Positions 3,522-52,353 of a DNA stretch of 64,000 bases are shown piece by piece. The position numbers and the translations under genes were made by a program. The first letter of the stretch is position 1; each line of letters begins with the position of its first letter. The DNA is from Candidatus Limnocylindria bacterium (lineage in GTDB: Bacteria; Patescibacteriota; Saccharimonadia; Saccharimonadales; JAGQNK01). The stretch covers positions 1,581 through 65,580 of the forward strand of contig DATHJH010000042.1 of the NCBI GenBank assembly GCA_035489815.1, in the 5' to 3' direction. A model generated the notes under the pieces. That model did not search any database. It was not told the origin of the DNA and worked only from the letters and a program-made list of their open reading frames with translations.

Positions 3522-6060
3522 ATCCCGTTACAACCCAAAAGACCTACAAACTGTATCTATACATACGAACCATGCAGGCGTGTTCAACCGTTATTCAATG
3601 GCTGGAAGGGAAGTGGGTTGTAACGGGATGAACGGCACGTCCTTAAACCTTGGCAGCGTACGGGCTAAAAAGGCCCGGTTGGCTCTGCGCCTTAAAAAGG
3701 CCGGATACCTGGCGTATGCATCCGTTGGAGTCTTAGGCGGCCTGACTGCTCTGTATCTGTTGCTCCTGGAAAAGAACAAGCTTGGGTATCTGACGCTGGC
3801 CGCAGCGCTGTATGCACTCATGTGGGTGGTGTGGTTCAAGACTGAACTGGTCAAATTACCGCCAAAGAACCCCGGCAACAGCGTAGACGACCTGTTGGAC
3901 GCTGACTTTCTGGCCAAGCTCAAAAACCCGGTGACACCGCGCAGTGCCTGGGGTGGCCTGACTGGCCACTGGCAAGAGATATTCATCACCAACCGCTTGC
4001 AGCTGGATCCAAAGCTGGTTGAAACAGTGCTAAGTGACCGTGAAGCAGACATGGACCAGGTCTGGCAGCTGGCCCGCAAATTGCAATCTGCCCATGACCC
4101 CAATTCGCTCAGTGCCGGGACCGTTACGACCGCCCTGATTCTGTCGTCACCCGAGCTCACTGAGTTCCTTACCACACAAAACATCCGGCCGGAGGATACC
4201 CTCCAGGTCTTTGATTGGCTCAGCCGCGTGTTGGCCTACCAACAGCTGCCCAAACCGTATTTTGGCGGGATTGGTCGGGATTGGGCCTTTGGCTTTACGC
4301 CCAACCTGGAACGCTTCAGCACTAATATAAGCGCGCAAGTACAGGGCGGCGCTGGCCATGCCCACTTTATGTCGCGCAGCAGCTCCATAGACGCCATGAT
4401 CAACAGCCTCAACCAGGCGAGCGGAGGCATAGCTATAGTTGGTAACACCGGTATAGGCAAAACCTCTGCAGTCTATGCCCTGGCTGAACGGCTGCTGCAG
4501 GATAAATCCGTTGGCAGCATTCAAGACCACCAGGTCGTAGCGCTGAATGCGTCAGTTATATTGTCCGCTGCCAAGCAGGATCTGGAACGGACTATGCTGA
4601 TGCTGTTTGGCGAGGCTATGCAGGCCGGCAATATGATTGTCTTTTTGGACGAGGCCCAGCTGTTTTTCCAGCAAGGCGTCGGATCCTTTGATCTGTCGCA
4701 AATCCTGTTGCCGGTGCTGCAGAACCGCCGGCTGAAGCTGATCTGCGCCTTTAATACGACCGACTTCCAGCGGCTCAAAGTTTCTAATCCCGCATTAGCA
4801 GCAGCACTCACACCCGTCGTCCTGCCAGAGCCACCCCAGGCAGAAGTCCTTAAAATCGTAGAAGACAGCGCCCTAGGGATAGAACACCGCACCAGGACAG
4901 TCATCACCTACGAGGCCGTCCGCGAAGCCTACCGGTTAAGCGGACAGTATGTGCAGAATATGGCTTATCCAGGCAAGGCCATCAGCCTGTTAGAGCAAGC
5001 CACCTCCTACGCCGACAATACGGTCCTCACCGCCGTGAGCGTGCAACGTACTGTCGAAAGCACGCTGGGCGTAAAAGTCGGCGGCGTCCAGGGCGAGGAA
5101 GCCGATACACTCCTGCACCTGGAGGACCGTATACATGAACGCATGATCAACCAAACTAGGGCAGTTACCGTTGTGGCAAGTGCCCTCAGGCGGGCCAGGG
5201 CAGGGGTGGGCAACACTAAACGGCCGATCGGTAGCTTTCTGTTTCTCGGGCCTACCGGCGTGGGAAAAACAGAGCTAGCCAAGTCCCTGGCCGCAACCTA
5301 CTTTGGCGATGAAAAGAACATGATCCGCCTGGACATGAGCGAGTACCAGCAGCCAGGCGATGTCAGCCGCATGCTGTCGGACGGCAGCCAATCGGAAAGC
5401 CTGTTGTTGGCCATCCGCAAACAACCTTTCTCTGTGGTACTGTTGGACGAGATTGAAAAGGCGCACAGTAGCGTGCTTAACCTGCTGCTACAGCTGCTGG
5501 ACGAAGGGCAATTAACTGACATCAACGGCCAACCAGCCAGTTTCCGCAACGCGATTATCATTGTGACCTCCAATGCCGGAGCCAATGACATCATTGAACG
5601 CATTACCAAAAACCAGCCGCTGGAGGAGTTTGAACGGCCGCTTATCGACAAACTCATAGCCAGCGGCGTCTTTCGTCCGGAACTGGTCAACCGTTTTGAT
5701 GAAGTCGTACTGTTCAGGCCGCTCAATCAGCAAGAATTAGGACAGGTAGCGCTGCTGATGCTGGCAGAGGTTAACCGTAACCTGGCTAACCAAAACGTCA
5801 GTGTACAACTGACCCAGGCCGCGCTGGATAGTCTGGTCCGGCAGGGCTATGACCCGCAGTTTGGCTCCCGCCCCATGCGCCGTGTCATTCAGCGCACCGT
5901 AGAAGACGCCGTGGCCCAAAAAATCCTCAGCGGCCAGGCCGGCCCCGGAACAAAAATTCTGCTGGATTTACCAGACCTGCAAGATCAGCCGGCTCCCACC
6001 CCGCCTCCGCAGCAACAACCACCAATTTCATTCCCACCGTCGACACCACCTAAAACATAG
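3511..6060 (+). CDS. double AAA+ Clp/Hsp100-family ATPase with N-terminal transmembrane segments and a Pro-rich tail
   Basis: Two Walker A motifs (GNTGIGKTS, GPTGVGKTE) and Walker B-like IVFLDEAQ and VVLLDEIEKAH. RPELVNRFDEVVLFRPL is typical of the ClpA/B/C D2 module. The start is uncertain: TTG 3511, ATG 3598 or ATG 3628. Confidence 0.85.
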   Translation: MPDESRYNPKDLQTVSIHTNHAGVFNRYSMAGREVGCNGMNGTSLNLGSVRAKKARLALRLKKAGYLAYASVGVLGGLTALYLLLLEKNKLGYLTLAAALYALMWVVWFKTELVKLPPKNPGNSVDDLLDADFLAKLKNPVTPRSAWGGLTGHWQEIFITNRLQLDPKLVETVLSDREADMDQVWQLARKLQSAHDPNSLSAGTVTTALILSSPELTEFLTTQNIRPEDTLQVFDWLSRVLAYQQLPKPYFGGIGRDWAFGFTPNLERFSTNISAQVQGGAGHAHFMSRSSSIDAMINSLNQASGGIAIVGNTGIGKTSAVYALAERLLQDKSVGSIQDHQVVALNASVILSAAKQDLERTMLMLFGEAMQAGNMIVFLDEAQLFFQQGVGSFDLSQILLPVLQNRRLKLICAFNTTDFQRLKVSNPALAAALTPVVLPEPPQAEVLKIVEDSALGIEHRTRTVITYEAVREAYRLSGQYVQNMAYPGKAISLLEQATSYADNTVLTAVSVQRTVESTLGVKVGGVQGEEADTLLHLEDRIHERMINQTRAVTVVASALRRARAGVGNTKRPIGSFLFLGPTGVGKTELAKSLAATYFGDEKNMIRLDMSEYQQPGDVSRMLSDGSQSESLLLAIRKQPFSVVLLDEIEKAHSSVLNLLLQLLDEGQLTDINGQPASFRNAIIIVTSNAGANDIIERITKNQPLEEFERPLIDKLIASGVFRPELVNRFDEVVLFRPLNQQELGQVALLMLAEVNRNLANQNVSVQLTQAALDSLVRQGYDPQFGSRPMRRVIQRTVEDAVAQKILSGQAGPGTKILLDLPDLQDQPAPTPPPQQQPPISFPPSTPPKT

Positions 6061-25226: not shown

Positions 25227-26594
25227 TCACAAGAAAGAACCAAAGAATTTTTTTGCCAAAGCCTTTGATTTAGTGCCAATACGAGCCGGCTCAACCAAAT
25301 CTTCCTGGTCATCAGCAAAGTCAGATACCAGCGCCCGGCGGGATTCAGCCAGTCTGTGGAAAACAACCCGGCGCAGCACATAGGCAGCCACTCCCACGCT
25401 CACACCAATTGTCAGATCAGTTATTACAGTTAGTACCAAAGTGACAAGCAAGGTTATATCAAAGTCTGCGGCATGACTCTTGATAGCACGTGATACTTCC
25501 TTGTATTCGCTGATGCGGATTGCAGTGACCAGCAGGACCGCGCTGAGAGCCGTCAGCGGTATGGTGTTAGCCACCGGCGCAAGCAACGCCAAAAAGACCA
25601 GTACCGTCAGGGCGTGGATAATGGTTGTAACTCTGGAAACAGCGTGACTCTTGATTGCCGTACCCGTGCGGGCAATGACTGCAGTGGCAGGGATGCCACC
25701 AAATAAAAAGGAACCGATATTTGCGATTCCTTGCGCCGTAAGTTCCTGGCCGGGGCGGTGCTTTGTCTTGGTTATTCTATCGGCCACCAGGGCACACAAA
25801 AGACTCTCAATGGCGATCAAAAACGCAATTTTGAGAGCAGGCACAATAAAAGCACCTTCAAACGTCGGCAGGTTGCTCACAAGCCGCGGCAATCCCTCGG
25901 CAATAGGACCGTAGGCGTTAGAAAGCGTTTTGACAGGCTGAAAATACGGAACAAATTTGCACAGCAGCGTCGCTACCGCCACTGCCAGCAGTGTAGACGG
26001 AATTTTAGCAATTGGTTTGAGCTTGTTTGCGCTCACAATAATACCAACCGACAACACGCCAAGCACCAGGGTCGGCAGGTGCAAAACACCGACGTGCTTG
26101 AGCGTTTCCAGGGTTTTTTCATGAAAGTGGGTGTGCGCTTCCAGCCCCGACAGGCCAAAAAAGGCATTAAGCTGACCAAAAAATATCACTATGGCCACAC
26201 CGGCCGTAAAGCCCAGCACTACGCTCTCCGGTATCCTGACGATCAGCTTTCCGACGCCAATGAGGCCGAATAGGATCAAAAAGAGCCCGGCAAGCATAGT
26301 AATCATCGGCAGGTTTTTCGCGCCGAACTGATTCACGGTTGCCACAAGGACCGGCACCATAGCAGCGGCAGGGCCCGAAACGCTGTAAGCCGAACCTGCA
26401 AAAAGGCCGGCCAAAAGGCCGGCTATTCCTGCGGTGTACAGACCGATAACCGGCTCTACACCTGCTGCGATTGCGAGGGCAAGCGAAAGCGGCAGGGCTA
26501 CTATGCCCACCGTTAAGCCTGCGCTGAGGTCCTTAATAAGTTTCGGTTTTGAATACCCGACTAGATCAGGAAAAAAATTCTGAACAACTCGCAT
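25227..26594 (-). CDS. SulP-family anion transporter (no STAS domain visible)
   Basis: 455-aa polytopic protein. The N-terminal LIKDLSAGLTVGIVALPLSLALAIAAGV is typical of SulP. The C-terminus is short and charged rather than a STAS domain. Confidence 0.75.
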   Translation of the reverse strand: MRVVQNFFPDLVGYSKPKLIKDLSAGLTVGIVALPLSLALAIAAGVEPVIGLYTAGIAGLLAGLFAGSAYSVSGPAAAMVPVLVATVNQFGAKNLPMITMLAGLFLILFGLIGVGKLIVRIPESVVLGFTAGVAIVIFFGQLNAFFGLSGLEAHTHFHEKTLETLKHVGVLHLPTLVLGVLSVGIIVSANKLKPIAKIPSTLLAVAVATLLCKFVPYFQPVKTLSNAYGPIAEGLPRLVSNLPTFEGAFIVPALKIAFLIAIESLLCALVADRITKTKHRPGQELTAQGIANIGSFLFGGIPATAVIARTGTAIKSHAVSRVTTIIHALTVLVFLALLAPVANTIPLTALSAVLLVTAIRISEYKEVSRAIKSHAADFDITLLVTLVLTVITDLTIGVSVGVAAYVLRRVVFHRLAESRRALVSDFADDQEDLVEPARIGTKSKALAKKFFGSFL

Positions 26595-26822: not shown

Positions 26823-27248
26823 CTATCTTCGATGTCTGCGTTTCAAACCGGCTACCTGTAAGCGGACGGCTTGGCGGTCCATCAGGCTTTGGGCGTGTTC
26901 CAGGGACACCTGGTCTTTGGCCTCGGCTTTCATTTTTTGGGCTAGTTCGTAAGCTTTTTTGGCCTCTGCTTCATCAATATCCGTTTCATGGTCGGCTTCG
27001 TCCACCAGTACAGACAAAATATTATCGGATACCTCTATGACCCCGCCGTTGGTGGCAAACAGTTCCATGAAGTCATCCGGGTCAGTAGCCTTGCGACGAA
27101 CTTTTATAACCCCATGCGTGGCCACACTAATCAGCGGCATATGGCCGGGCAATACACCAATCTGGCCGGCCATAGTAGGCAGCTGCACCTCGTAGACATC
27201 ATCGTCAAATTTAGTACCACTGATAGTCTCTAATTTTAAACGAATCAC
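26823..27248 (-). CDS. atpC: F1 ATP synthase subunit epsilon
   Basis: GTG start. MIRLKLETISGTKFDDDVYEVQLPTMAGQIGVLPGHMPLIS is a typical epsilon N-terminus. Last gene of the operon. Confidence 0.9.
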   Translation of the reverse strand: MIRLKLETISGTKFDDDVYEVQLPTMAGQIGVLPGHMPLISVATHGVIKVRRKATDPDDFMELFATNGGVIEVSDNILSVLVDEADHETDIDEAEAKKAYELAQKMKAEAKDQVSLEHAQSLMDRQAVRLQVAGLKRRHRR

Positions 27249-27271
27249 TTTGTGATTCCTTTAAAATTAGG

Positions 27272-27299
27272 AAGTGAGGAGTGAGGAGTGAGGAGTGCG
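27272..27299. repeat. four tandem heptamers (R)AGTG(A/C)G
   Basis: aagtgag gagtgag gagtgag gagtgcg lies directly downstream of the four-helix-bundle ORF stop. The last copy forms the 3' half of the stem enclosing that ORF. Confidence 0.7.
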
Positions 27300-27300
27300 A

Positions 27301-27696
27301 TCATTTGCGATTCCTTGTAGATTTTATGAGACCGATTAATAATTTATGACCTTTTACGCTTTGACTATATAGGAGAAGCCTTGCATCTTCGTTTATATAG
27401 CCCACGTCAAGGGCAATGTACATAAAGCTCTGAAGTTCAGTTAGCGATCCGGCGGCAATGGTATAAAAATGAAGTTTATCAGCAATGGTTTGCCGGCTAA
27501 AACCTTCTGCTATATTGGCCGATACGGAGCTGGCTGCACGACGCATTTGGTTTGTCAGCGCGAACTGCTCGTCTTTAGGAAATTGACGAGTCAATATATA
27601 GGTTTGCTTCGCCAGCTCCCGGGCAGCCTGCCAGGCAAGTAGCTTTTCAAACGAATCCAGCTTACCGGGTTTTTCTTCTGACTCCACTCTTCGCAC
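27301..27696 (-). CDS. four-helix-bundle protein (23S rRNA intervening-sequence protein family, TIGR02436/PF05635-like)
   Basis: FEKLLAWQAARELAKQTY...FPKDEQFALTNQMRRAASSVSANIAEGFSR...AAGSLTELQS matches the family pattern. It is inserted between atpD and atpC. The start is GTG 27696 or GTG 27687. Confidence 0.85.
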   Translation of the reverse strand: MRRVESEEKPGKLDSFEKLLAWQAARELAKQTYILTRQFPKDEQFALTNQMRRAASSVSANIAEGFSRQTIADKLHFYTIAAGSLTELQSFMYIALDVGYINEDARLLLYSQSVKGHKLLIGLIKSTRNRK

Positions 27697-27713
27697 TCCT
27701 AACTTCGTTAAAG

Positions 27714-29433
<1,720 letters not shown>

Positions 29434-29599
29434 TTTTGAATTGCCTCCATACTCATCGCATTCATCTTAATCATTGATCACCATCCTCTCGCCCCAAGTT
29501 GTCAAGGGACCTCTCTTTCAAGCGGCGGCCAAGATCCAGCTCAAATTCGCTTTGCTGAGTCCATAGTTTGAAAGGGTTTTTCCATTCCATTATTTTTTC

Positions 29600-29941
29600 C
29601 TATCCACCCCAGTTACCAGTAAAATTGCGCATTACTCTCTCGGCCTCAACATCTGTTCTATTCTCTACCGCCATCTGAATGCCTTGTTCGTATGAAACTA
29701 CAATCTCACGGGCAATTTGCAAGGCTGCCCAGTCTAATGCCTCGGGCGTCATTACTCGATCTTCAGCTAAGGCATTCTCAAGGATACTGGTAGCATCAAC
29801 TCTGTGTTCTTCAAACCTCGCCACCATAGCACCTTCGTAGGCTGCCCGATCGTCCGAACCAAAAGCCTCTATCCAGGGCTGGACTTCACGATCGCCAATA
29901 GGACTTTGGCCTAAATTCAGTCCATCAGTTCCTTCGGTCAT
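29600..29941 (-). CDS. acidic ORFan (113 aa) embedded in the atp operon
   Basis: The ATG overlaps (ATGA) the stop of a relic copy of the atpG 3' end. The GGAGG inside that relic lies 7 nt upstream. Confidence 0.55.
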   Translation of the reverse strand: MTEGTDGLNLGQSPIGDREVQPWIEAFGSDDRAAYEGAMVARFEEHRVDATSILENALAEDRVMTPEALDWAALQIAREIVVSYEQGIQMAVENRTDVEAERVMRNFTGNWGG

Positions 29942-29947
29942 TTTATA

Positions 29948-29980
29948 GCCTCCGCGCCGCCGGTTATTTCTGCTACTTCC
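29948..29980 (-). repeat. relic duplicate of the atpG 3' end (encodes EVAEITGGAEAIK*)
   Basis: 31 of 33 nt are identical to 30552-30584, the real atpG C-terminus (ELAEITGGAEAIK*). Confidence 0.85.
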
Positions 29981-29984
29981 GGCA

Positions 29985-30545
29985 TCATGGATACAATAAC
30001 TCCTCTTTGATTTTTGCTATATCCCTGCCAACATAAATGACGTGCTTGATTTCGAACAATTCTCTAATGGCTGGAGTCATTGCAACACGCCGACTAGGAT
30101 TAGGGTGGGCAGTTTCAAAAGACTTGACCTGCAACGGGTCTGTTTGGGTAAACACTGGCTTCTCGCCTACTTCTCTGACGTGACTAATGTTGCCCACATC
30201 CCATGGGAGGGGGGAGTCGTATCGTGGGGTGTGCGGACCTACTGTAGATAACTCCGGGAAACGATCGACGACCCTCTGCTGTCTGTCGTTAAGTTTTTCA
30301 CGGCGTACTATAGGGTTGGCGTTGTACACTGCAACCACCAGAGCATGTATATCATCTCCCTCCATGACCTCATGCCATAGGCGAAGATCGTCCGAGGTGG
30401 GGTACGGAGGATTGTCAAGTGGCATGACGTCGATACCAAAGCGATTCGGTACATAGCCCGTCCAGCTCTCCATGACACTCCCATCATCTGAACGGGGGAC
30501 AGATAACGCCACGGTTACTCTTTCTGAGTCTGGAATCTTATTCAC
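29985..30545 (-). CDS. ORFan (186 aa) embedded in the atp operon, bracketed by the atpG 3'-end duplication
   Basis: GTG 30545 overlaps the atpG stop (GTGA), with GGAGG 7 nt upstream. No motif recognised. Confidence 0.55.
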   Translation of the reverse strand: MNKIPDSERVTVALSVPRSDDGSVMESWTGYVPNRFGIDVMPLDNPPYPTSDDLRLWHEVMEGDDIHALVVAVYNANPIVRREKLNDRQQRVVDRFPELSTVGPHTPRYDSPLPWDVGNISHVREVGEKPVFTQTDPLQVKSFETAHPNPSRRVAMTPAIRELFEIKHVIYVGRDIAKIKEELLYP

Positions 30546-31411
30546 TTGATGGCCTCCGCGCCGCCGGTTATTTCTGCCAGTTCCTGGGTGATTGCTGCCT
30601 GGCGGGCGGTGTTAAAGGCCAGGGTCAGGTCGTCTATCAAATCGGATGCGTTGTCGGTGGCATTTTTCATGGCCATCATGCGCATGGATTGTTCTGATGC
30701 AAAGCTCTCCAGGATAGCCTGCCAGATCTGGACCTCAATCAGCCGCAGTGCCACGCTGTCCAGCACTTCTTTGGGCGAAGGTTCCAGCGTGACATTATCC
30801 AGGCTATGGGCGTCTTCGTCGGTTTCCTCAAAACTGGCCGGCAACACCTGCAGGGCAGAAGCAATCTGGACAAGGTTGGACTTGAACTCGGTATAAAGCA
30901 GCTTGACCTCGTCCACGAATCCTTCAGCATACTGTTCTGTAATGGTATTCAGCAGTGGCCGCAGGTCATTGGCATCCGGCTGATCGCCAATGTCGTTGTA
31001 AACAGCCAATAGCTCTACGCCCTCCAGGGTGCGGACAAAGTTGGCACCTTTTTTGCCGATGGTTATGACCTTGGCGCTCACACCTTTGGCCTGGTCCTCA
31101 CGGATGGCTCGGGTTAGGCTTTTTAAAACATTGGTGTCATATGCGCCGGCCAAACCCTGGTTACTGGTGACAACCACATACAAAGCACGCTGTATGTCAC
31201 GCCTGGTAAACAGCGGATGGTCTTCTACATCTGTAATCTTGCTGAGGCGGGTCAGCAGGGAATAGGCTGCAATGCGATAATTCCGTGAACGCTGAGCAAA
31301 TTCCTGCGCCCGGCGCATTTTACTAGCCGCCACCAATTCCATGGCCTTAGTAATCTGCCGAGTGTTCTTGACTGAACCAATTCGTCGCTTCAGCGTAATC
31401 GTATTAGCCAT
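30542..31411 (-). CDS. atpG: F1 ATP synthase subunit gamma
   Basis: The ORF track gives 30542-31477. ATG 31411 yields MANTITLKRRIGSVKNTRQITKAMELVAASKMRRAQ, the canonical gamma N-terminus. The C-terminus is ...ITQELAEITGGAEAIK. Confidence 0.92.
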   Translation of the reverse strand: MANTITLKRRIGSVKNTRQITKAMELVAASKMRRAQEFAQRSRNYRIAAYSLLTRLSKITDVEDHPLFTRRDIQRALYVVVTSNQGLAGAYDTNVLKSLTRAIREDQAKGVSAKVITIGKKGANFVRTLEGVELLAVYNDIGDQPDANDLRPLLNTITEQYAEGFVDEVKLLYTEFKSNLVQIASALQVLPASFEETDEDAHSLDNVTLEPSPKEVLDSVALRLIEVQIWQAILESFASEQSMRMMAMKNATDNASDLIDDLTLAFNTARQAAITQELAEITGGAEAIK

Positions 31412-31754
31412 CAATATCTCCAGCCTGGCCGTCGATAATTCGCTGCATAAACTCAGCCAGACAGACCTCTCTGCCAATCAGAGTTCTGGTAGAAGTAAGC
31501 GTTGGGTCTGGGTCAGATGTCAAACTCCCGTCAAGCAACAGCCCGAGTACATGGCCGACATTACCCTGATTATGCGTAAGATCGTTTTCTATTGCGCCCG
31601 ACTCCACCAAGCTTACCTCAAGGATGGCCCCGAGCTGCGTGGCTAATTTGTCGTCCGGCATAACGGCAAAGTATTCTTCCATACCCGCTCTGTAAGTCTG
31701 AATGCGAGGATCTTCCCGCCAATTTTCAGCTGGTGGTTGCATGGGACTTGTCAC
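31404..31754 (-). CDS. acidic ORFan (116 aa) between atpA and atpG
   Basis: GTG 31754 lies 2 nt after the atpA stop (an internal ATG is at 31742). Its stop overlaps the atpG start by 8 nt. No motif recognised. Confidence 0.5.
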   Translation of the reverse strand: MTSPMQPPAENWREDPRIQTYRAGMEEYFAVMPDDKLATQLGAILEVSLVESGAIENDLTHNQGNVGHVLGLLLDGSLTSDPDPTLTSTRTLIGREVCLAEFMQRIIDGQAGDIDG

Positions 31755-31756
31755 GA

Positions 31757-33334
31757 TTACTTATTTGCCTTTGCTTTCATATCCTTAACTGGTTCTTCAT
31801 GAATATAGCTGGCGGCTACTTTTTGGGCGGTGTCCAGGATGGTTTTCTTACCTTCGTCGTCAGGAGCGTCACCTTTGTTCAGATTAGCAACCAGTTTCTT
31901 TTGTTCGTTCTTGAGTTCGCGCAGCAGGTTGGCCTCTGCTGTTTTGACCTTATCGAGTGGTACTTTGTCGAATGCCCCTTCGATAGCTGCGTACAGTACC
32001 GCGTACATTTCCCAGACGCTGAGGGGGCTGAACTGCGGTTGTTTGAGCAGTTCGGTCAACCGCTGGCCGCGTTCAATGCGCTGGCGGGTGTCAGCATCCA
32101 AGTCGGTAGAGAACTGGCTAAAGGCAGCTAGTTCGCGGAACTGGGCCAGGTCTACACGCAGACCCTTGGACACGCTTTTGACAGCCCTGGTCTGGGCATT
32201 GCCACCCACACGGGACACAGACAGGCCAACAGAAATAGCTGGGCGAATACCCTGGTAGAACAGGTTAGTCTCGAAGAAAATCTGACCGTCGGTAATGGAA
32301 ATCACGTTGGTCGGGATGTAGGCACTAATATCACCCGCCTGGGTTTCGATGATTGGCAGGGCAGTCAGGGAACCGGCCCCCAGGTCGTCAGACAATTTGG
32401 CTGCCCGTTCCAGCAGGCGTGAGTGCAGGTAAAAGACATCACCCGGATAGGCCTCTCGCCCGGGTGGGCGGCGCAGCAGGAGGGACATTTGTCGATAGGC
32501 GGCGGCATGCTTGGACAGATCGTCATAGATGATCAGGGAGTGTTGTTTGTTATCGCGGAAATATTCACCCATGGCTGAACCGGCATAGGGGGCCAGGTAC
32601 TGTAAACTGGCCGGGTCGGCGGCAGACGTCGCAACCACAATGGTCTGGTCCATGACGCCTTCGCGCTTGAGGCGCTCTACCAAACGTGCGACTTTGCTCA
32701 GTTTCTGGCCAATGGCTACATATATATTAATGACGCCGGTTTCCTGGCGGTGCTGGTTGATCATGGTATCTACCGCCACGGCTGTTTTACCGGTCTGACG
32801 GTCACCAATCAGCAACTCTCGCTGGCCGCGGCCAATCGGCACCATGGCGTCTATGGCAGTGATGCCTGTCATAAGTGGTTCATGCACGCTCTTGCGGTCC
32901 AGCACGCCGGGGGCGGGGCGTTCCACACGGCTGGTCCGGGTGGTTTTGATTGCACCCTTGCCGTCCAACGGCTGGCCAAGCGGGTTGACCACACGGCCGA
33001 CGAGCTCTGGACCTACTGGCACTTCCAGCACCTTGCCAGTCAGCTTTGCCTTGGCACCGGCTTTGACGACAACGTCATCACCCAGCAGCACCGCGCCGAT
33101 CTCGTCCTCACCCAGATTAAAGGCAAAAGCCGTTACTGCTACGCCGTCAGTAGCCTCTAGCTCTATCATTTCCGAGTAGCCGCAGGTGGTCAGGCCGTAA
33201 ATCCAGGCCACGCCGTCACCAACACGCGTTACCACACCAACGTTTTCTATTTCCGGCCGGGACTTTAGCTGGGTAATAGCCGCGCGGATGTCTTCTGATA
33301 ATTCTTTGATGGAGATATTGTCCATGGAGCTCAT
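31757..33334 (-). CDS. atpA: F1 ATP synthase subunit alpha
   Basis: GDRQTGKTA (Walker A) is present, and the sequence looks alpha-subunit-like along its full length (525 aa). Confidence 0.97.
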
Positions 33335-33345
33335 AATTTTGTACT

Positions 33346-33747
33346 TTATTCCTTAATGTTCGCCGTCAGGCGCTTAAACGCATCCAGTCTATCCTTGATC
33401 GTCAAATCCAGCTGTTCATTGGCCATCTGCAACCGGACACCGCCGACCACCGATGGATCCTTGCGGCTAATAATATGCACTGACTTGGCCTTGGGGTGTT
33501 CCTTCTTTAGGATTGCCTCCAGATCGCGGATGACATCATCACTCAGGTCATGAGCGCTAACCGCCACTGCCTCAACCACCCCATGCTGAGCCCGGTACTC
33601 CATGATGTCACGGATGAGGGACTCCAGATCGTCAGTGTCGTGAGTATCCAACAGGTAAGCCGCCACGGCTTTGGCCAATTTCTTAGAATCGTGCACCTGC
33701 AAGGTGCGTTCTCCAATAACTTCGGCCAGGTGGCGACGGGATATCAT
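33346..33747 (-). CDS. atpH: F1 ATP synthase subunit delta (OSCP-like, short)
   Basis: Lies between the b and alpha genes. C-terminal [25 protein letters not shown] is typical of delta. At 133 aa it is shorter than usual. Confidence 0.75.
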
Positions 33748-33750
33748 ATG

Positions 33751-34317
33751 TTACGACTTGCGCTTTCGGATGACTTTTTCAATAATTTCTGCGTCTTTTT
33801 TGGGGTCGACCTTTTCCCCAACGATCGCTTCAGTGGCTTCTGACACCAGACTCACTATATCTTTTTCAAGCTTGCGCTTGGCAGCTTCGGTTTCTTCGTG
33901 AATGCGGGCTTCTGCATCTGCCAGCATGGCCTCTGCTTTGCGATTAGAAGCCTTTTCGGCGTCACGCAGGACTTCCCGGGCTTCTTTGTGGCCGCCTGCG
34001 ATGATGCGGTCGGCCTCGTGACGGGCCTCGCGGGTAATCCGGGCGGCCTCCTGGTCCATCTTTTCTCGCTGACGCTCCAATTTCTGGCCCAAGCGCACGC
34101 CGTCATCAATGGTCTGGCGGCGCTTCTCCAGCATGGCGCCGATGGGCTTGAAAGCAAATTTCTTCAGCAGCAGAAAGACAAAGACAAAGGTAATCAACTG
34201 GATCAGAAAAGCCGAGCCGCTGACGCCCAAGGCACCAAGCCCGGTGGCTTCTTCGGTGTGACCCGCCGCCTCTTCAGCCGCGTGGGCCGCTTCTGCTGCA
34301 AATAGTGCTAAATACAT
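33751..34317 (-). CDS. atpF: Fo ATP synthase subunit b
   Basis: A single N-terminal TM helix (FLIQLITFVFVFLLL) is followed by a long, highly charged helix. The position in the operon fits. Confidence 0.85.
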   Translation of the reverse strand: MYLALFAAEAAHAAEEAAGHTEEATGLGALGVSGSAFLIQLITFVFVFLLLKKFAFKPIGAMLEKRRQTIDDGVRLGQKLERQREKMDQEAARITREARHEADRIIAGGHKEAREVLRDAEKASNRKAEAMLADAEARIHEETEAAKRKLEKDIVSLVSEATEAIVGEKVDPKKDAEIIEKVIRKRKS

Positions 34318-34337: not shown

Positions 34338-34544
34338 TTAGATGATAAATAGAGAGGCGAATACCAGCAGCGCCATCAGCTCGACGATACCAATGATGAC
34401 CAAAATCTGGCCCAAATATTTGCTGGCCTCCGGGTTGCGGCCAACAGCATTCATGAATGACGAACCAATCAGGCCAATGCCAATAGCCGGGCCCAGCATT
34501 CCAAAACCCATCATAATGCCTTTGGCGAGTACTTCTGTATCCAT
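34338..34544 (-). CDS. atpE: Fo ATP synthase subunit c
   Basis: 68-aa helical hairpin with a GRNPE loop and the conserved carboxylate in GIVELMAL. Confidence 0.92.
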   Translation of the reverse strand: MDTEVLAKGIMMGFGMLGPAIGIGLIGSSFMNAVGRNPEASKYLGQILVIIGIVELMALLVFASLFII

Positions 34545-34598: not shown

Positions 34599-35420
34599 TC
34601 AGGCTGCGACTGCCGCAGGCTCTTCATGATCCTCGGCGGCGTGGTCCTCACCGTGTTTAATGGCAACAGAGAGATAGGTCATACTCAGCATTACAAATAT
34701 ATAGGCCTGCAGTCCGCCTACCGCCAGTTCCAGCATGACGAACGGCAGGGAAGTGATCGGCGCCGCAAAGCTGCCCAGGTAGGTGAACACCGAAATGATG
34801 ACTTCGCCAATAGTGACATTCAAAAAGAGTCGTAGCGCCAGGCTGAATACCCGGATAAGTTCAGACAGCATTTCAAAGACGCCCAAAAAAAGCGTCAGCG
34901 GATTTTTCAGACTGCCGTTGAAATAGTGGCTGAGGTGTTTGAAGAACCCGGACTCTTTGATGGCAAAGTACTGTACCAGGGTCATAACAACCGCTGCCGC
35001 GGCCAGGGTGCCGTTCAAATCAGCAGTAAAGGGACGGAAAACCGGACTGCCATCTTTAGTCAATGCCTCACCCACGCCGGGCAACAATCCCAGCCAGTTA
35101 GAAAACATAATAAAGAAAAAGAAGGTCACAAAATACGGCGCGTACTGCAGGGCTTTTTTGCGCGAACCAAGCGAAGAAGTCATTTGATTCGTGATAAAAT
35201 CGCTGCCAATTTCCAAAAACTGTGTAAAGCCCCTCTTGGGGTGCAAGCTCACCCTGCGGACAACCAGGATAAAAACCACCAAAATGACAAACGAGCTTAT
35301 CCAGCCGTACAGCATAGAGTTGGTGATAGTGAAACCGCCAACCTCAAACAGAGTGCCAGGCGTAATGTGGACCGTCGGGCCCGAACTTTCTGCAGCAAAT
35401 TGTCTCATTAAACTAAACAC
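34599..35420 (-). CDS. atpB: Fo ATP synthase subunit a
   Basis: Polytopic protein. LALRLFLNVTIGE contains the conserved stator arginine. Confidence 0.9.
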   Translation of the reverse strand: MFSLMRQFAAESSGPTVHITPGTLFEVGGFTITNSMLYGWISSFVILVVFILVVRRVSLHPKRGFTQFLEIGSDFITNQMTSSLGSRKKALQYAPYFVTFFFFIMFSNWLGLLPGVGEALTKDGSPVFRPFTADLNGTLAAAAVVMTLVQYFAIKESGFFKHLSHYFNGSLKNPLTLFLGVFEMLSELIRVFSLALRLFLNVTIGEVIISVFTYLGSFAAPITSLPFVMLELAVGGLQAYIFVMLSMTYLSVAIKHGEDHAAEDHEEPAAVAA

Positions 35421-35739
35421 GTTTTCTTTTGCTTCCTTTCGCGTCCTCTTCGGCTTGGAGTTTATTCACGCCTTTGACAGTGTTCCATACCACAGTACAA
35501 GCTGCAAATGCCGCCAGAAAAAACCCTGCCAGGGTAAGCGACGGGGAAGTATCAAGCTTTTGGTCCAACTTCACCCCGGCCACCACCGGAATCACTACGG
35601 TCAAGGCAAGCTGCCAGCTCATAGTAAGCGCTGCAGTAAAAAACTGTTGCCTTGCATTAAAAGTATCTAAAGCCTGCTGAATGTCATCTCCAGGCTTATT
35701 CGATCTAGTCGTCGTCTTCCTGGCGGCGGCTTTTCCCAT
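35413..35739 (-). CDS. AtpZ/AtpI-like small membrane protein
   Basis: 108 aa with two hydrophobic helices. It is the first gene of the atp operon and overlaps the atpB start by 8 nt. Confidence 0.5.
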   Translation of the reverse strand: MGKAAARKTTTRSNKPGDDIQQALDTFNARQQFFTAALTMSWQLALTVVIPVVAGVKLDQKLDTSPSLTLAGFFLAAFAACTVVWNTVKGVNKLQAEEDAKGSKRKRV

Positions 35740-51466: not shown

Positions 51467-51484
51467 TCCCGGGTAGCTCAATGG
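51467..51484 (+). repeat. duplicate of the tRNA-Asn 5' end
   Basis: tcccgggtagctcaatgg matches tccggagtagctcaatgg at 51907-51924 in 16 of 18 positions. Confidence 0.6.
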
Positions 51485-51554: not shown

Positions 51555-51836
51555 ATGCCCAAAGAAAAGCGTACATATGCAGACAGAAGAGAGTACTTTA
51601 TTATGGCGGTTTCAAAACGCCGCCGCAGGATTAAAGAAAAAGCGATCGAACTCCTAGGCAGCAGGTGTCAAGTGTGCAGATATGACCGCTATCAGGGAGC
51701 CTTGATTTTCATCACGTTGACCCAAGCACAAAAGAGCTTCGGCATTAGCGGCAATGGGCACTCCCGGTCATGGGAGCGAGTAAAAGAAGAACTAGCCAAG
51801 TGTGTACTGGTTTGCGCCAACTGTCACGGGAGATAG
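51555..51836 (+). pseudogene. decayed small HNH endonuclease gene
   Basis: The ORF stays open but reads ALIFITLTQAQKS where an alternative frame of 51704-51736 reads DFHHVDPSTKE, the expected HNH block. After CANCH the expected REI.AGL tail is again in another frame (stop at 51881-83). Confidence 0.65.
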
Positions 51837-51906: not shown

Positions 51907-52246
51907 TCCGGAGTAGCTCAATGGTAGAGCGATTGGCTGTCAGTTGGCAGCGCACCTGAGTAATCAGGTGATGAAAACAGGGTGAATTGCAGGAAACCTA
52001 CATCCTCGCAGAGGACACGGCAATCTGCAGCCAAGCTAGAAAGAGCAAAAGTTCATTAATGAACTGAGGTTTTCTAGAAGGTTCAGAGACTAGGGAGTGA
52101 GACTCAACGATAATCTCCCCGCGAGCGCCCTGCATCCTACGTAGCTTTATGCGAAGGAGGATGATGAAATAGTCCACGCTCCTGCGAAAGCAGAAGGTCT
52201 AAGTGTAACCAATAGGTTGCCGGTTCGAGTCCGGCCTCCGGAGCCA
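51907..52246 (+). tRNA. tRNA-Asn(GUU) interrupted by a group I intron (exon 1 51907-51940, exon 2 52206-52246, CCA encoded)
   Basis: The joined exons give a canonical cloverleaf: acceptor UCCGGAG/CUCCGGA, D arm GCUC-AAUGGUA-GAGC, anticodon arm AUUGG-CUGUUAA-CCAAU, T arm GCCGG-UUCGAGU-CCGGC, discriminator G73 and CCA. Confidence 0.8.
51941..52205 (+). ncRNA. group I intron (265 nt, no ORF), probably of the tRNA-intron (IC3-like) type
   Basis: P1 forms between exon GCUGU and intron GCAGC with a U.G pair at the splice site. P10 forms between intron GUUG and exon-2 UAAC. Other marks are a P2 hairpin with a GUAA loop (51953-70), AGAGACUA at 52085-92, a GAAA-capped hairpin at 52182-93 and a terminal G at 52205. 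Confidence 0.75.
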
Positions 52247-52353
52247 AAGCAAGCAGTCAAATAGTGAGACCGAGTTCTGTGACCGGTTTCTTCGTTTGAC
52301 TCCTTGGTGCCAGGAAGTTATTCATCAATGCAAAAACAGCCAGTTTTGGTTGG

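Follow-up and report, generated by a model that had tools for sequence, protein, structure and literature searches.

Several kinds of mobile DNA are known to enter the 3' ends of genes, as phage 21 and e14 do in icd and as islands do at tRNA or tmRNA genes. In these integrase-type systems the target is kept intact, and the insert regenerates the last codons of the gene and lies between direct repeats of that end. A comparable layout was found in the ATP synthase (atp) operon of a 64-kb stretch of contig DATHJH010000042.1 (the window in what follows), where the 3' end of atpG, the gene for the F1 gamma subunit, is present as two copies of 43 nt that bracket a single open reading frame (ORF), ORF186, while atpG itself has its full length. 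The known elements measure kilobases and carry an integrase beside the attachment (att) site, whereas the unit described here measures 604 bp and holds one gene and no recombinase; moreover, its relic of the gene end has boundaries that vary between genomes and carries the start signals of the next gene. With moderate confidence, we interpret the repeat as the trace left when a gene was inserted into a translationally coupled atp junction by recombination within the conserved atpG end, with ORF186 as the newest arrival.

Other described systems resemble the locus in part. Integron arrays also consist of single promoterless ORFs of diverse content that are added at one end and expressed from upstream signals, but here the genes join at the coding end of an essential gene and would be expressed through coupling within an essential operon. 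No attC-type inverted repeat was found at either boundary of the unit, although intI was not scanned for in the rest of the window. Free-standing homing endonuclease genes (seg and mob of T-even phages) and morons likewise occur sporadically between conserved, syntenic and highly expressed genes. Homing does not, however, duplicate its target, and ORF186 has no detectable nuclease domain; morons carry a promoter and a terminator of their own, whereas no promoter-like or terminator-like site was found on the minus strand, which is the coding strand, between 29100 and 30600, and the insert was therefore read as part of the operon. Insertion sequences, transposons and miniature inverted-repeat elements differ in that their known target-site duplications (2-14 bp) are far shorter than the 43 nt duplicated here, and the unit has neither inverted repeats at its ends nor a transposase domain. 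Finally, termination-reinitiation coupling shares with this locus a Shine-Dalgarno (SD) sequence in the last codons of the upstream gene and a 4-nt stop/start overlap; the difference is that here the module is a duplicated gene fragment, apparently reused as a short relay ORF.

By analogy, then, the event would work like an integration that regenerates a gene 3' end, but it fails the defining tests of the integrase, integron, transposon and moron families. The original prediction had likened it to elements that target tRNA 3' ends or to homing-type cassettes. That affiliation was not upheld: the 604-bp unit encodes only ORF186, without a recombinase or nuclease domain and without terminal inverted repeats, and it probably falls outside both families because no integrase, nuclease or transposase domain was found in it by sequence. 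No recombinase gene lies inside the unit, of which ORF186 is the sole gene, and its neighbours are atp genes and ORFs without known relatives.

The repeated atpG end and the genes it joins

The top-ranking direct repeat between positions 26000 and 36000 pairs 29938-29980 with 30542-30584 (38 of 43 nt identical, or 88%, at a spacing of 604). The upstream copy encodes the final 13 codons of atpG and its stop codon. What had been reported as a 33-nt repeat (29948-29980 and 30552-30584, 2 mismatches) is real and does bracket ORF186, but forms the inner part of the 43-nt repeat; the coordinates of the two translated readings were corrected to 30542-30583 for ELAEITGGAEAIK plus stop (earlier given as 30552-30584) and to 29938-29979 for EVAEITGGAEAIK plus stop. 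An exact core of 26 nt, GCAGAAATAACCGGCGGCGCGGAGGC, occurs in the whole window only at 29948-29973 and 30552-30577, even with up to 3 mismatches allowed. A core match appeared in none of 100 shuffles, and the repeat reached a z of about 20 relative to shuffled spacer sequence. All five mismatches lie at the edges of the repeat, around the core (P=0.04 given five differences in 43 nt), and four of them are at third-codon positions in the atpG frame. The 26-nt identity reaches 20 nt upstream of the SD sequence.

Comparison with relatives confirmed the origin of the downstream copy. We used approximately 160 Saccharibacteria atp loci that were fetched with the atpG protein from a genome collection and from metagenome contigs (L002-L162). 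When the 1445-nt spacer between atpG and atpD was searched against these loci with blastn, all 90 matches placed spacer positions 559-614, the relic, on a true atpG 3' end, and the rest of the spacer had no match. Scored against the atpG end, the downstream copy reached 30.5, while 0 of 595 control gene upstream regions scored at least 11. The right-hand part of the relic, GGAGGCTATAAAATGA, is the commonest atpG ending in the relatives, where it is joined through ATGA to a variable downstream ORF; in other words, the relic has the common type of ending (ATAAAATGA), as opposed to the rarer ATCAAGTGA in the functional copy. The suggestion that ORF113, the gene behind the relic, was once coupled directly to atpG is thus supported as far as the nature of the relic and its usual ATGA-coupled context are concerned, while the direction of change would follow only under the model developed below.

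Both copies are supported by three assemblies. Across the locus, two Logan contigs (SRR7026476 and SRR7026477) match the window with 100% identity, and a 91,310-bp JGI contig carries the same genes, which makes an assembly artefact very unlikely. In addition, the 26-nt core is shorter than the k-mers usual in such assemblies, so that, with k-mers of the usual length, a false join through the core is not possible. The Logan contigs break in atpA and atpD. Strain polymorphism of the spacer was considered as the cause and rejected; a further break at about 27984 suggests that the breaks reflect k-mers of conserved genes shared among co-occurring relatives.

As originally predicted, both copies place GGAGG 7 nt ahead of an overlapping stop/start. 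In the functional copy, GGAGG at 30553-30557 precedes the GTG of ORF186 (30543-30545), which overlaps the TGA of atpG (GTGA); in the relic, GGAGG at 29949-29953 precedes the ATG of ORF113 (29939-29941), which overlaps the relic stop (ATGA). The TGA of ORF186 lies 4 nt upstream of the relic, and the relic is contained in a 16-codon mini-ORF (Table 1) whose ATG overlaps the ORF186 TGA and whose TGA overlaps the ORF113 ATG, in both cases as ATGA. An unbroken chain of 4-nt overlaps consequently runs from atpG through ORF186 and the mini-ORF to ORF113. The layout typical of termination-reinitiation, an SD sequence within the upstream ORF at a distance of 5-10 nt from a start codon overlapping the stop of that ORF, is present both at atpG/ORF186 and at relic/ORF113. 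Judged by this layout, translational coupling along the chain is predicted, as is translation of ORF186 and of the mini-ORFs.

A second relic lies closer to atpD, where another putative relay mini-ORF with ATGA overlaps at both ends connects the 39-codon ORF to ORF110. Its last 21 nt, 29430-29450 (ATGGAGGCAATTCAAAAATGA), read MEAIQK plus stop in the frame of its TGA. The atpG gene of L083, the closest relative (atpG 88% identical to that of the window), ends in GCGGAGGCGATTCAGAAATGA (AEAIQK plus stop), which is identical at 19 of the 21 positions, with both differences synonymous as judged by eye on the alignment. The best score of this segment against 158 atpG ends was 16.5, compared with a maximum of 13 for 609 control gene upstream regions. 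Its sequence thus marks 29430-29450 as an older and more decayed copy of an AEAIQK-type atpG end. In L083 itself, atpA and atpG are separated by 9 nt, a single 61-codon ORF lies between atpG and atpD, and ORF186 is absent. As a separate observation, atpD of L083 (Ga0193752_1004909, 4619-6018) is split by a frameshift into two overlapping ORFs (4619-5617 and 5410-6018), which reflects either a sequencing error or pseudogenisation.

The products of the inserted genes gave few clues. ORF186 had only self-matches in a word-indexed search of 5.8e9 proteins, and a full HMMER search of 1.8e9 representatives returned nothing credible beyond itself; its cluster has a second member, which comes from the JGI copy of this contig. 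P0003, a 528-aa protein, aligned over 20-residue stretches (E=4e-5) and was not taken as a homolog. The search for further ORF186 homologs flanked by duplicated gene ends, which the original prediction had proposed, accordingly ended with self-matches. ORF113 and ORF110 each matched only themselves among the 5.8e9 proteins, and none of the three had a match in Pfam, PHROGs, NCBIfam or PADLOC; ORF186 also had none in phage records (tblastn) or IMG/VR. The proposal that ORF186 might be a nuclease or recombinase was followed on two sides: the four domain libraries contained no recombinase, nuclease or transposase domain for it, while the single-sequence AlphaFold model (mean pLDDT 29.9) was unusable and left no structure to compare. 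On reading, the translation has no cysteine and no HNH-type motif.

The codon statistics of ORF186 are compatible with a real gene. Its codon-usage score is 0.19 in the annotated frame and -0.32 and -0.60 in the other frames, compared with 0.26 +/- 0.09 for genes of the genome and 0.075 +/- 0.135 for spurious ORFs overlapping real genes; its GC content by codon position is 0.60/0.39/0.51. The body of ORF186 has no residual similarity to atpG DNA (Smith-Waterman score 12 against 11.5 +/- 1.3 in shuffles) and no protein-level signal in any frame, so it is not a decayed atpG duplicate. ORF186 is most likely a fast-evolving passenger on a highly expressed essential operon, and the 39-codon ORF may be the remnant of an older cassette. 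For ORF113, a relationship to the ORFs that come first in L003 and L004 was rejected at an hhalign probability of 5.6%, and no homology was found with the leading ORF of L046, which also starts with MTEG. Between ORF110 and the atpD-proximal ORFs of L083 and L002-L005, a DDPEF motif is the only common part (hhalign P=0.09).

Variable genes at the atp junctions of related genomes

Extra genes at atp junctions are common among the relatives. Among 80 reference genomes, atpA and atpG lie about 0 to 637 nt apart, atpG and atpD 8 to 1752 nt, and atpD and atpC 3 to 490 nt, while the atpH-atpA (delta/alpha) junction is never expanded. The 169 spacer ORFs at the alpha/gamma, gamma/beta and beta/epsilon junctions of these genomes fall into 158 blastp clusters, and most have a start that overlaps the preceding stop by 4 nt or 1 nt. 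Ten spacer ORFs from related loci had no Pfam domain. Where homologous pairs could be compared, non-synonymous changes were far fewer than synonymous ones (dN/dS 0.08-0.34 where measurable), the pattern of proteins under purifying selection. Even so, these ORFs change much faster than atpG (46% versus 90% identity between L003 and L004), which accounts for part of the missing detectable relatives. A full-text search of the literature returned no description of variable genes inside Saccharibacteria atp operons, nor of gene-end relics at coupled junctions.

The clade nearest to the window contains a nested array. L002 has the order atpG-ORF59-atpD, L003 has atpG-ORF159-ORF51-atpD and L004 has atpG-ORF155-ORF166-ORF56-atpD, in which ORF59, ORF51 and ORF56 are homologous, as are ORF159 and ORF166. 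Towards atpD the genes are shared, and the variable gene adjoins atpG. A similar step separates L009 (atpG-ORF155-atpD) from L011 (atpG-ORF93-ORF155'): in both L003/L004 and L009/L011 one locus has one ORF more directly after atpG, with a short relic of the atpG end behind it. In L011 the sequence before ORF155' is GAGGCTATACAATGA, compared with GAGGCAATAAAATGA at its own atpG end. L042 has a 31-nt relic (24 of 31 identical) before its second ORF, and L098 has the relic GGCAATGAAATGA together with flanking matches. In L011 and L042 the inserted ORFs run through the relic in the atpG frame, ending in DSEAIQ and ETGDAESIQ, respectively. The additional ORF that comes first in L004 has a homolog at the same position, directly after atpG, in the distant L066. 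The sister genomes L066 and L068 (89% atpG identity) have different ORFs next to atpG.

Relics were counted by scoring the 45 nt upstream of each internal gamma/beta ORF against the atpG end of the same genome, with a threshold of at least 9. The ORFs of L090, L128 and L019 were left out because they start less than 60 nt from the true atpG end and their upstream windows overlap it. Relics were present before 5 of the 19 internal ORFs (those of the window, L098, L042, L011 and L004), compared with 5 of 595 controls (Fisher p=4e-6); without the window the count was 4 of 17 (p=5e-5). Relic lengths across loci were 43, 31, approximately 20 and 15 nt, and the relic in the window is by far the best preserved. 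No comparable duplicate was found at any other junction among approximately 85 expanded ones.

Proposed insertion by recombination and competing explanations

From the observed repeat, overlap architecture, second relic and comparative pattern, we infer the direction, recombination mechanism and donor of the event as follows. Before the event, atpG would have ended in GCGGAGGCTATAAAATGA, with the SD sequence and ATG of ORF113 inside its last codons. Because the atpG stop overlaps the next start and the SD sequence lies within atpG, a viable insertion must duplicate the atpG end; an insertion at the 4-nt overlap would otherwise truncate atpG or uncouple the downstream genes. The incoming DNA was most likely an atpG end with ORF186 from the atp operon of another Saccharibacterium, and the crossover with the resident operon would have occurred in the exact 26-nt core, flanked by diverged arms. 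One atpG end would then be the resident one and the other would have arrived with ORF186, ATCAAGTGA being native to ORF186 and ATAAAATGA to ORF113. The differences, which are confined to the edges of the repeat outside the 26-nt core and fall mostly at third-codon positions, fit a crossover in which both atpG ends were functional but had diverged from each other.

The most likely agent would be host homologous recombination after DNA uptake, which is the most economical choice because the unit encodes no recombinase. A genetic manipulation study of Saccharibacteria reportedly made use of natural transformation and homologous recombination. After the event, the upstream copy would complete atpG and start ORF186 (GGAGG, 7 nt, GTGA), whereas the downstream copy would persist as the 16-codon mini-ORF, passing terminating ribosomes from ORF186 to ORF113 and supplying the SD sequence of ORF113. 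Genetic manipulation of these bacteria is described in one report (PMC10633639). The process may be a recurrent one, with genes added on the atpG side, one step each. Addition on that side, with ORF186 as the newest gene, is suggested by the gradation of the relics from preserved near atpG to decayed near atpD, by the match of the older relic to the atpG end type of L083 and by the position of the common genes on the atpD side of the nearest-clade arrays.

Several observations weigh against this interpretation. The collections searched contained no relative with ORF113 but without ORF186, and ORF186 was not found in any other context among the 5.8e9 proteins. Exact-protein look-ups of ORF186, ORF113, atpG, atpC and atpH returned the same arrangement only, and atpG scans of genomes and metagenomes gave relatives at most 88% identical, none with ORF186, ORF113 or ORF110. 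Because an empty site is missing and the three ORFs match only themselves, the direction and donor of the event are statements of the model. The insertion of an ORF186 cassette, as first proposed, is thus backed by the comparable events in L003/L004 and L009/L011 and not by an empty-site relative. Furthermore, 14 of the 19 internal gamma/beta ORFs have no recognizable relic, and occupied junctions rarely have one before the terminal conserved gene, where relics are sporadic (L149 and L080). The third-position bias of the mismatches is weak (p approximately 0.045) and could also have arisen if the constrained functional copy had changed most after an intragenomic duplication. A homology of 26-43 nt is at the lower limit for RecA-type recombination, and translation of the mini-ORFs and ORF186 is a prediction from the sequence.

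The strongest competing explanation, although an unlikely one, reverses the polarity of the event: ORF186 would already have been coupled to atpG, and a segment comprising a donor atpG end, ORF113, ORF110 and possibly the 5' part of atpD would have arrived later. The route would be homology-facilitated illegitimate recombination, anchored in atpD and joined illegitimately just after ORF186, which would make the relic a passenger fragment of the donor atpG. No recombinase would be needed, the variable relic lengths are as expected of arbitrary joins, and atpD is indeed mosaic. In its first 420 nt, 56 informative sites agree with L002 and 37 with L083, whereas in nt 421-990, 58 agree with L083 and 36 with L002 (Fisher p=0.003), so recombination with a breakpoint in atpD occurred somewhere in the clade. 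The recombinant lineage is not assignable, however, and the signal cannot be credited to the lineage of the window. The reversed order also agrees less well with the nearest clade, in which the common genes are on the atpD side and the variable gene is beside atpG, and with L083, the closest relative, which is without ORF186. Likewise, the most decayed relic is the one nearest atpD and matches the L083 end type, which fits vertical descent of the atpD-side genes.

Site-specific integration is less probable still. Here the atpG end would be an att site for a recombinase acting in trans, of the tyrosine or Xer type, and ORF186 with one repeat would be a minimal cassette, similar to an integron cassette or an Xer-exploiting element. 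An identical core with diverged arms does resemble attL and attR, many lineages carry different ORFs at this one position, and the homologous first ORFs of L004 and L066 occupy it in distant genomes. Set against this, there is no recombinase in or beside the unit and no inverted repeat or attC-like hairpin at its boundaries, relic lengths and boundaries vary in a manner unlike a fixed att core, and other junctions are also occupied without a common site.

A tandem duplication of the atpG 3' part, with the second copy diverged or overprinted into ORF186 and its end kept as a ribosome-binding region, is very improbable. The in-frame passage of the L011 and L042 ORFs through their relics would agree with it, but this origin is contradicted by the lack of residual atpG similarity in the ORF186 body, at the DNA or the protein level, and the similarity ends abruptly after a 26-nt core that includes bases without an SD role, unlike a gradual decay. 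Chance, convergence of ribosome-binding regions or an assembly artefact is the least credible explanation, since the GGAGG, spacer and ATGA required at every coupled junction predict some similarity but not an identity extending 20 nt upstream of the SD sequence that 100 shuffles and 595 controls failed to approach and on which three assemblies agree.

A broader idea can be put forward tentatively, and we regard it as doubtful: the F1 part of the Saccharibacteria atp operon may serve as a recombinase-free gene-capture platform, with the last approximately 40 nt of atpG acting both as recombination anchor and as a portable translation-initiation module. Genes would be added singly beside atpG, decaying end copies would be reused as relay mini-ORFs, and the captured fast-evolving proteins could be lineage-specific ATP synthase modulators or host-interaction factors rather than passengers. 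The locus provides, at base level, a footprint of how a new gene may enter a tightly coupled essential operon and leave it unbroken, through duplication of the overlapping stop/start region. The atp junctions of Saccharibacteria (alpha, gamma, beta and epsilon) hold highly diverse, fast-evolving genes without known relatives that are chained to the ATP synthase genes by overlaps. If general, the process would offer a simple route by which reduced, naturally transformable genomes acquire and replace such genes, and would point to candidate lineage-specific ATP synthase partners.

Operon layout and neighboring features

The atp operon lies on the minus strand of the window (Table 1) and has extra ORFs at three junctions, atpA/atpG, atpG/atpD and atpD/atpC.

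Table 1. Features of the atp operon in the window, with the repeat copies and mini-ORFs of the atpG-atpD spacer
Feature	Position	Strand	Remarks
atpI-like gene	35413-35739	-	
atpB	34599-35420	-	
atpE	34338-34544	-	
atpF	33751-34317	-	
atpH	33346-33747	-	
atpA	31757-33334	-	
ORF116	31404-31754	-	in atpA/atpG junction
atpG (F1 gamma)	30542-31411	-	intact, 289 codons plus stop; PF00231, E=3.2e-90, full length
Repeat copy 1, functional atpG 3' end	30542-30584	-	ends in QELAEITGGAEAIK plus stop; core 30552-30577
ORF186	29985-30545	-	GTG start; sandwiched by the repeat copies
Putative relay mini-ORF, 16 codons	29938-29988	-	MMPEVAEITGGAEAIK plus stop; holds the relic; ORF-level reading, translation predicted
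Repeat copy 2, relic of atpG 3' end	29938-29980	-	EVAEITGGAEAIK plus stop; core 29948-29973
ORF113	29600-29941	-	
39-codon ORF	29471-29590	-	called in public annotations of L082 and L001
Second putative relay mini-ORF	29430-29474	-	between 39-codon ORF and ORF110, ATGA overlaps at both ends; read from sequence, translation predicted
ORF110	29101-29433	-	ORF nearest atpD
atpD (F1 beta)	27714-29096	-	next conserved gene; starts 4 nt past the ORF110 end
ORF131	27301-27696	-	in atpD/atpC junction; 23S rRNA intervening-sequence protein family, PF05635, E=3e-33
atpC	26823-27248	-	

Almost all of the nearest atp loci in the genome collection carry the label Saccharibacteria, Saccharimonadales or Patescibacteria, and a few carry other bin labels. 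The NCBI label of the assembly, 'Candidatus Limnocylindria bacterium' (Chloroflexota), stands in contrast to the Saccharibacteria-like atp loci and to a group I intron in tRNA-Asn, a trait of Patescibacteria. The taxonomic label of the bin is probably wrong, and the genome is probably that of a Saccharibacterium.

At the atpA/atpG junction, the stop of ORF116 overlaps codons 2-3 of atpG, and this ORF has no family match and no counterpart in related atp loci; a relic of the atpA end was not found before atpG. At the atpD/atpC junction, ORF131 is flanked by an imperfect inverted repeat of 26 nt (27271-27296 and 27681-27706), and its family (PF05635) forms a four-helix bundle. A homolog of ORF131 that is 68% identical occupies the same junction of the distant L053 (3951-4366) with its own inverted repeat of 23-28 nt, and a partial match follows atpG in L102. 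ORF131 looks like an intervening-sequence-type element that moves between atp junctions, and its closing stem could be an RNase III site in the operon mRNA. Next to it, a near-perfect hairpin of 19 nt at 27230-27270 (95% complementary, 3-nt loop) covers the GTG start of atpC.

The tRNA-Asn locus on the plus strand was also cited in the original prediction as a recurrence of the same logic. ARAGORN reported no tRNA in the 64-kb window because tRNA-Asn(GUU), at 51907-52247, is split in its anticodon loop by a group I intron (51931-52196; RF00028, 81 bits). Group I introns in tRNA-Asn are described for Patescibacteria in PMC13011429. The duplicated 5' end of the tRNA does exist, as an 18-nt repeat (51467-51484 and 51907-51924, 16 of 18 identical) that brackets a 93-codon ORF (51555-51836, plus strand) with CxxC...CxxCH motifs and no Pfam match. 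By eye this ORF looks like an HNH endonuclease gene, with a DFHHVDP-like motif that is out of frame. The tRNA-Asn case runs parallel, as a second example in this genome of a host-gene end duplicated beside an inserted ORF, but stands as a finding of its own.

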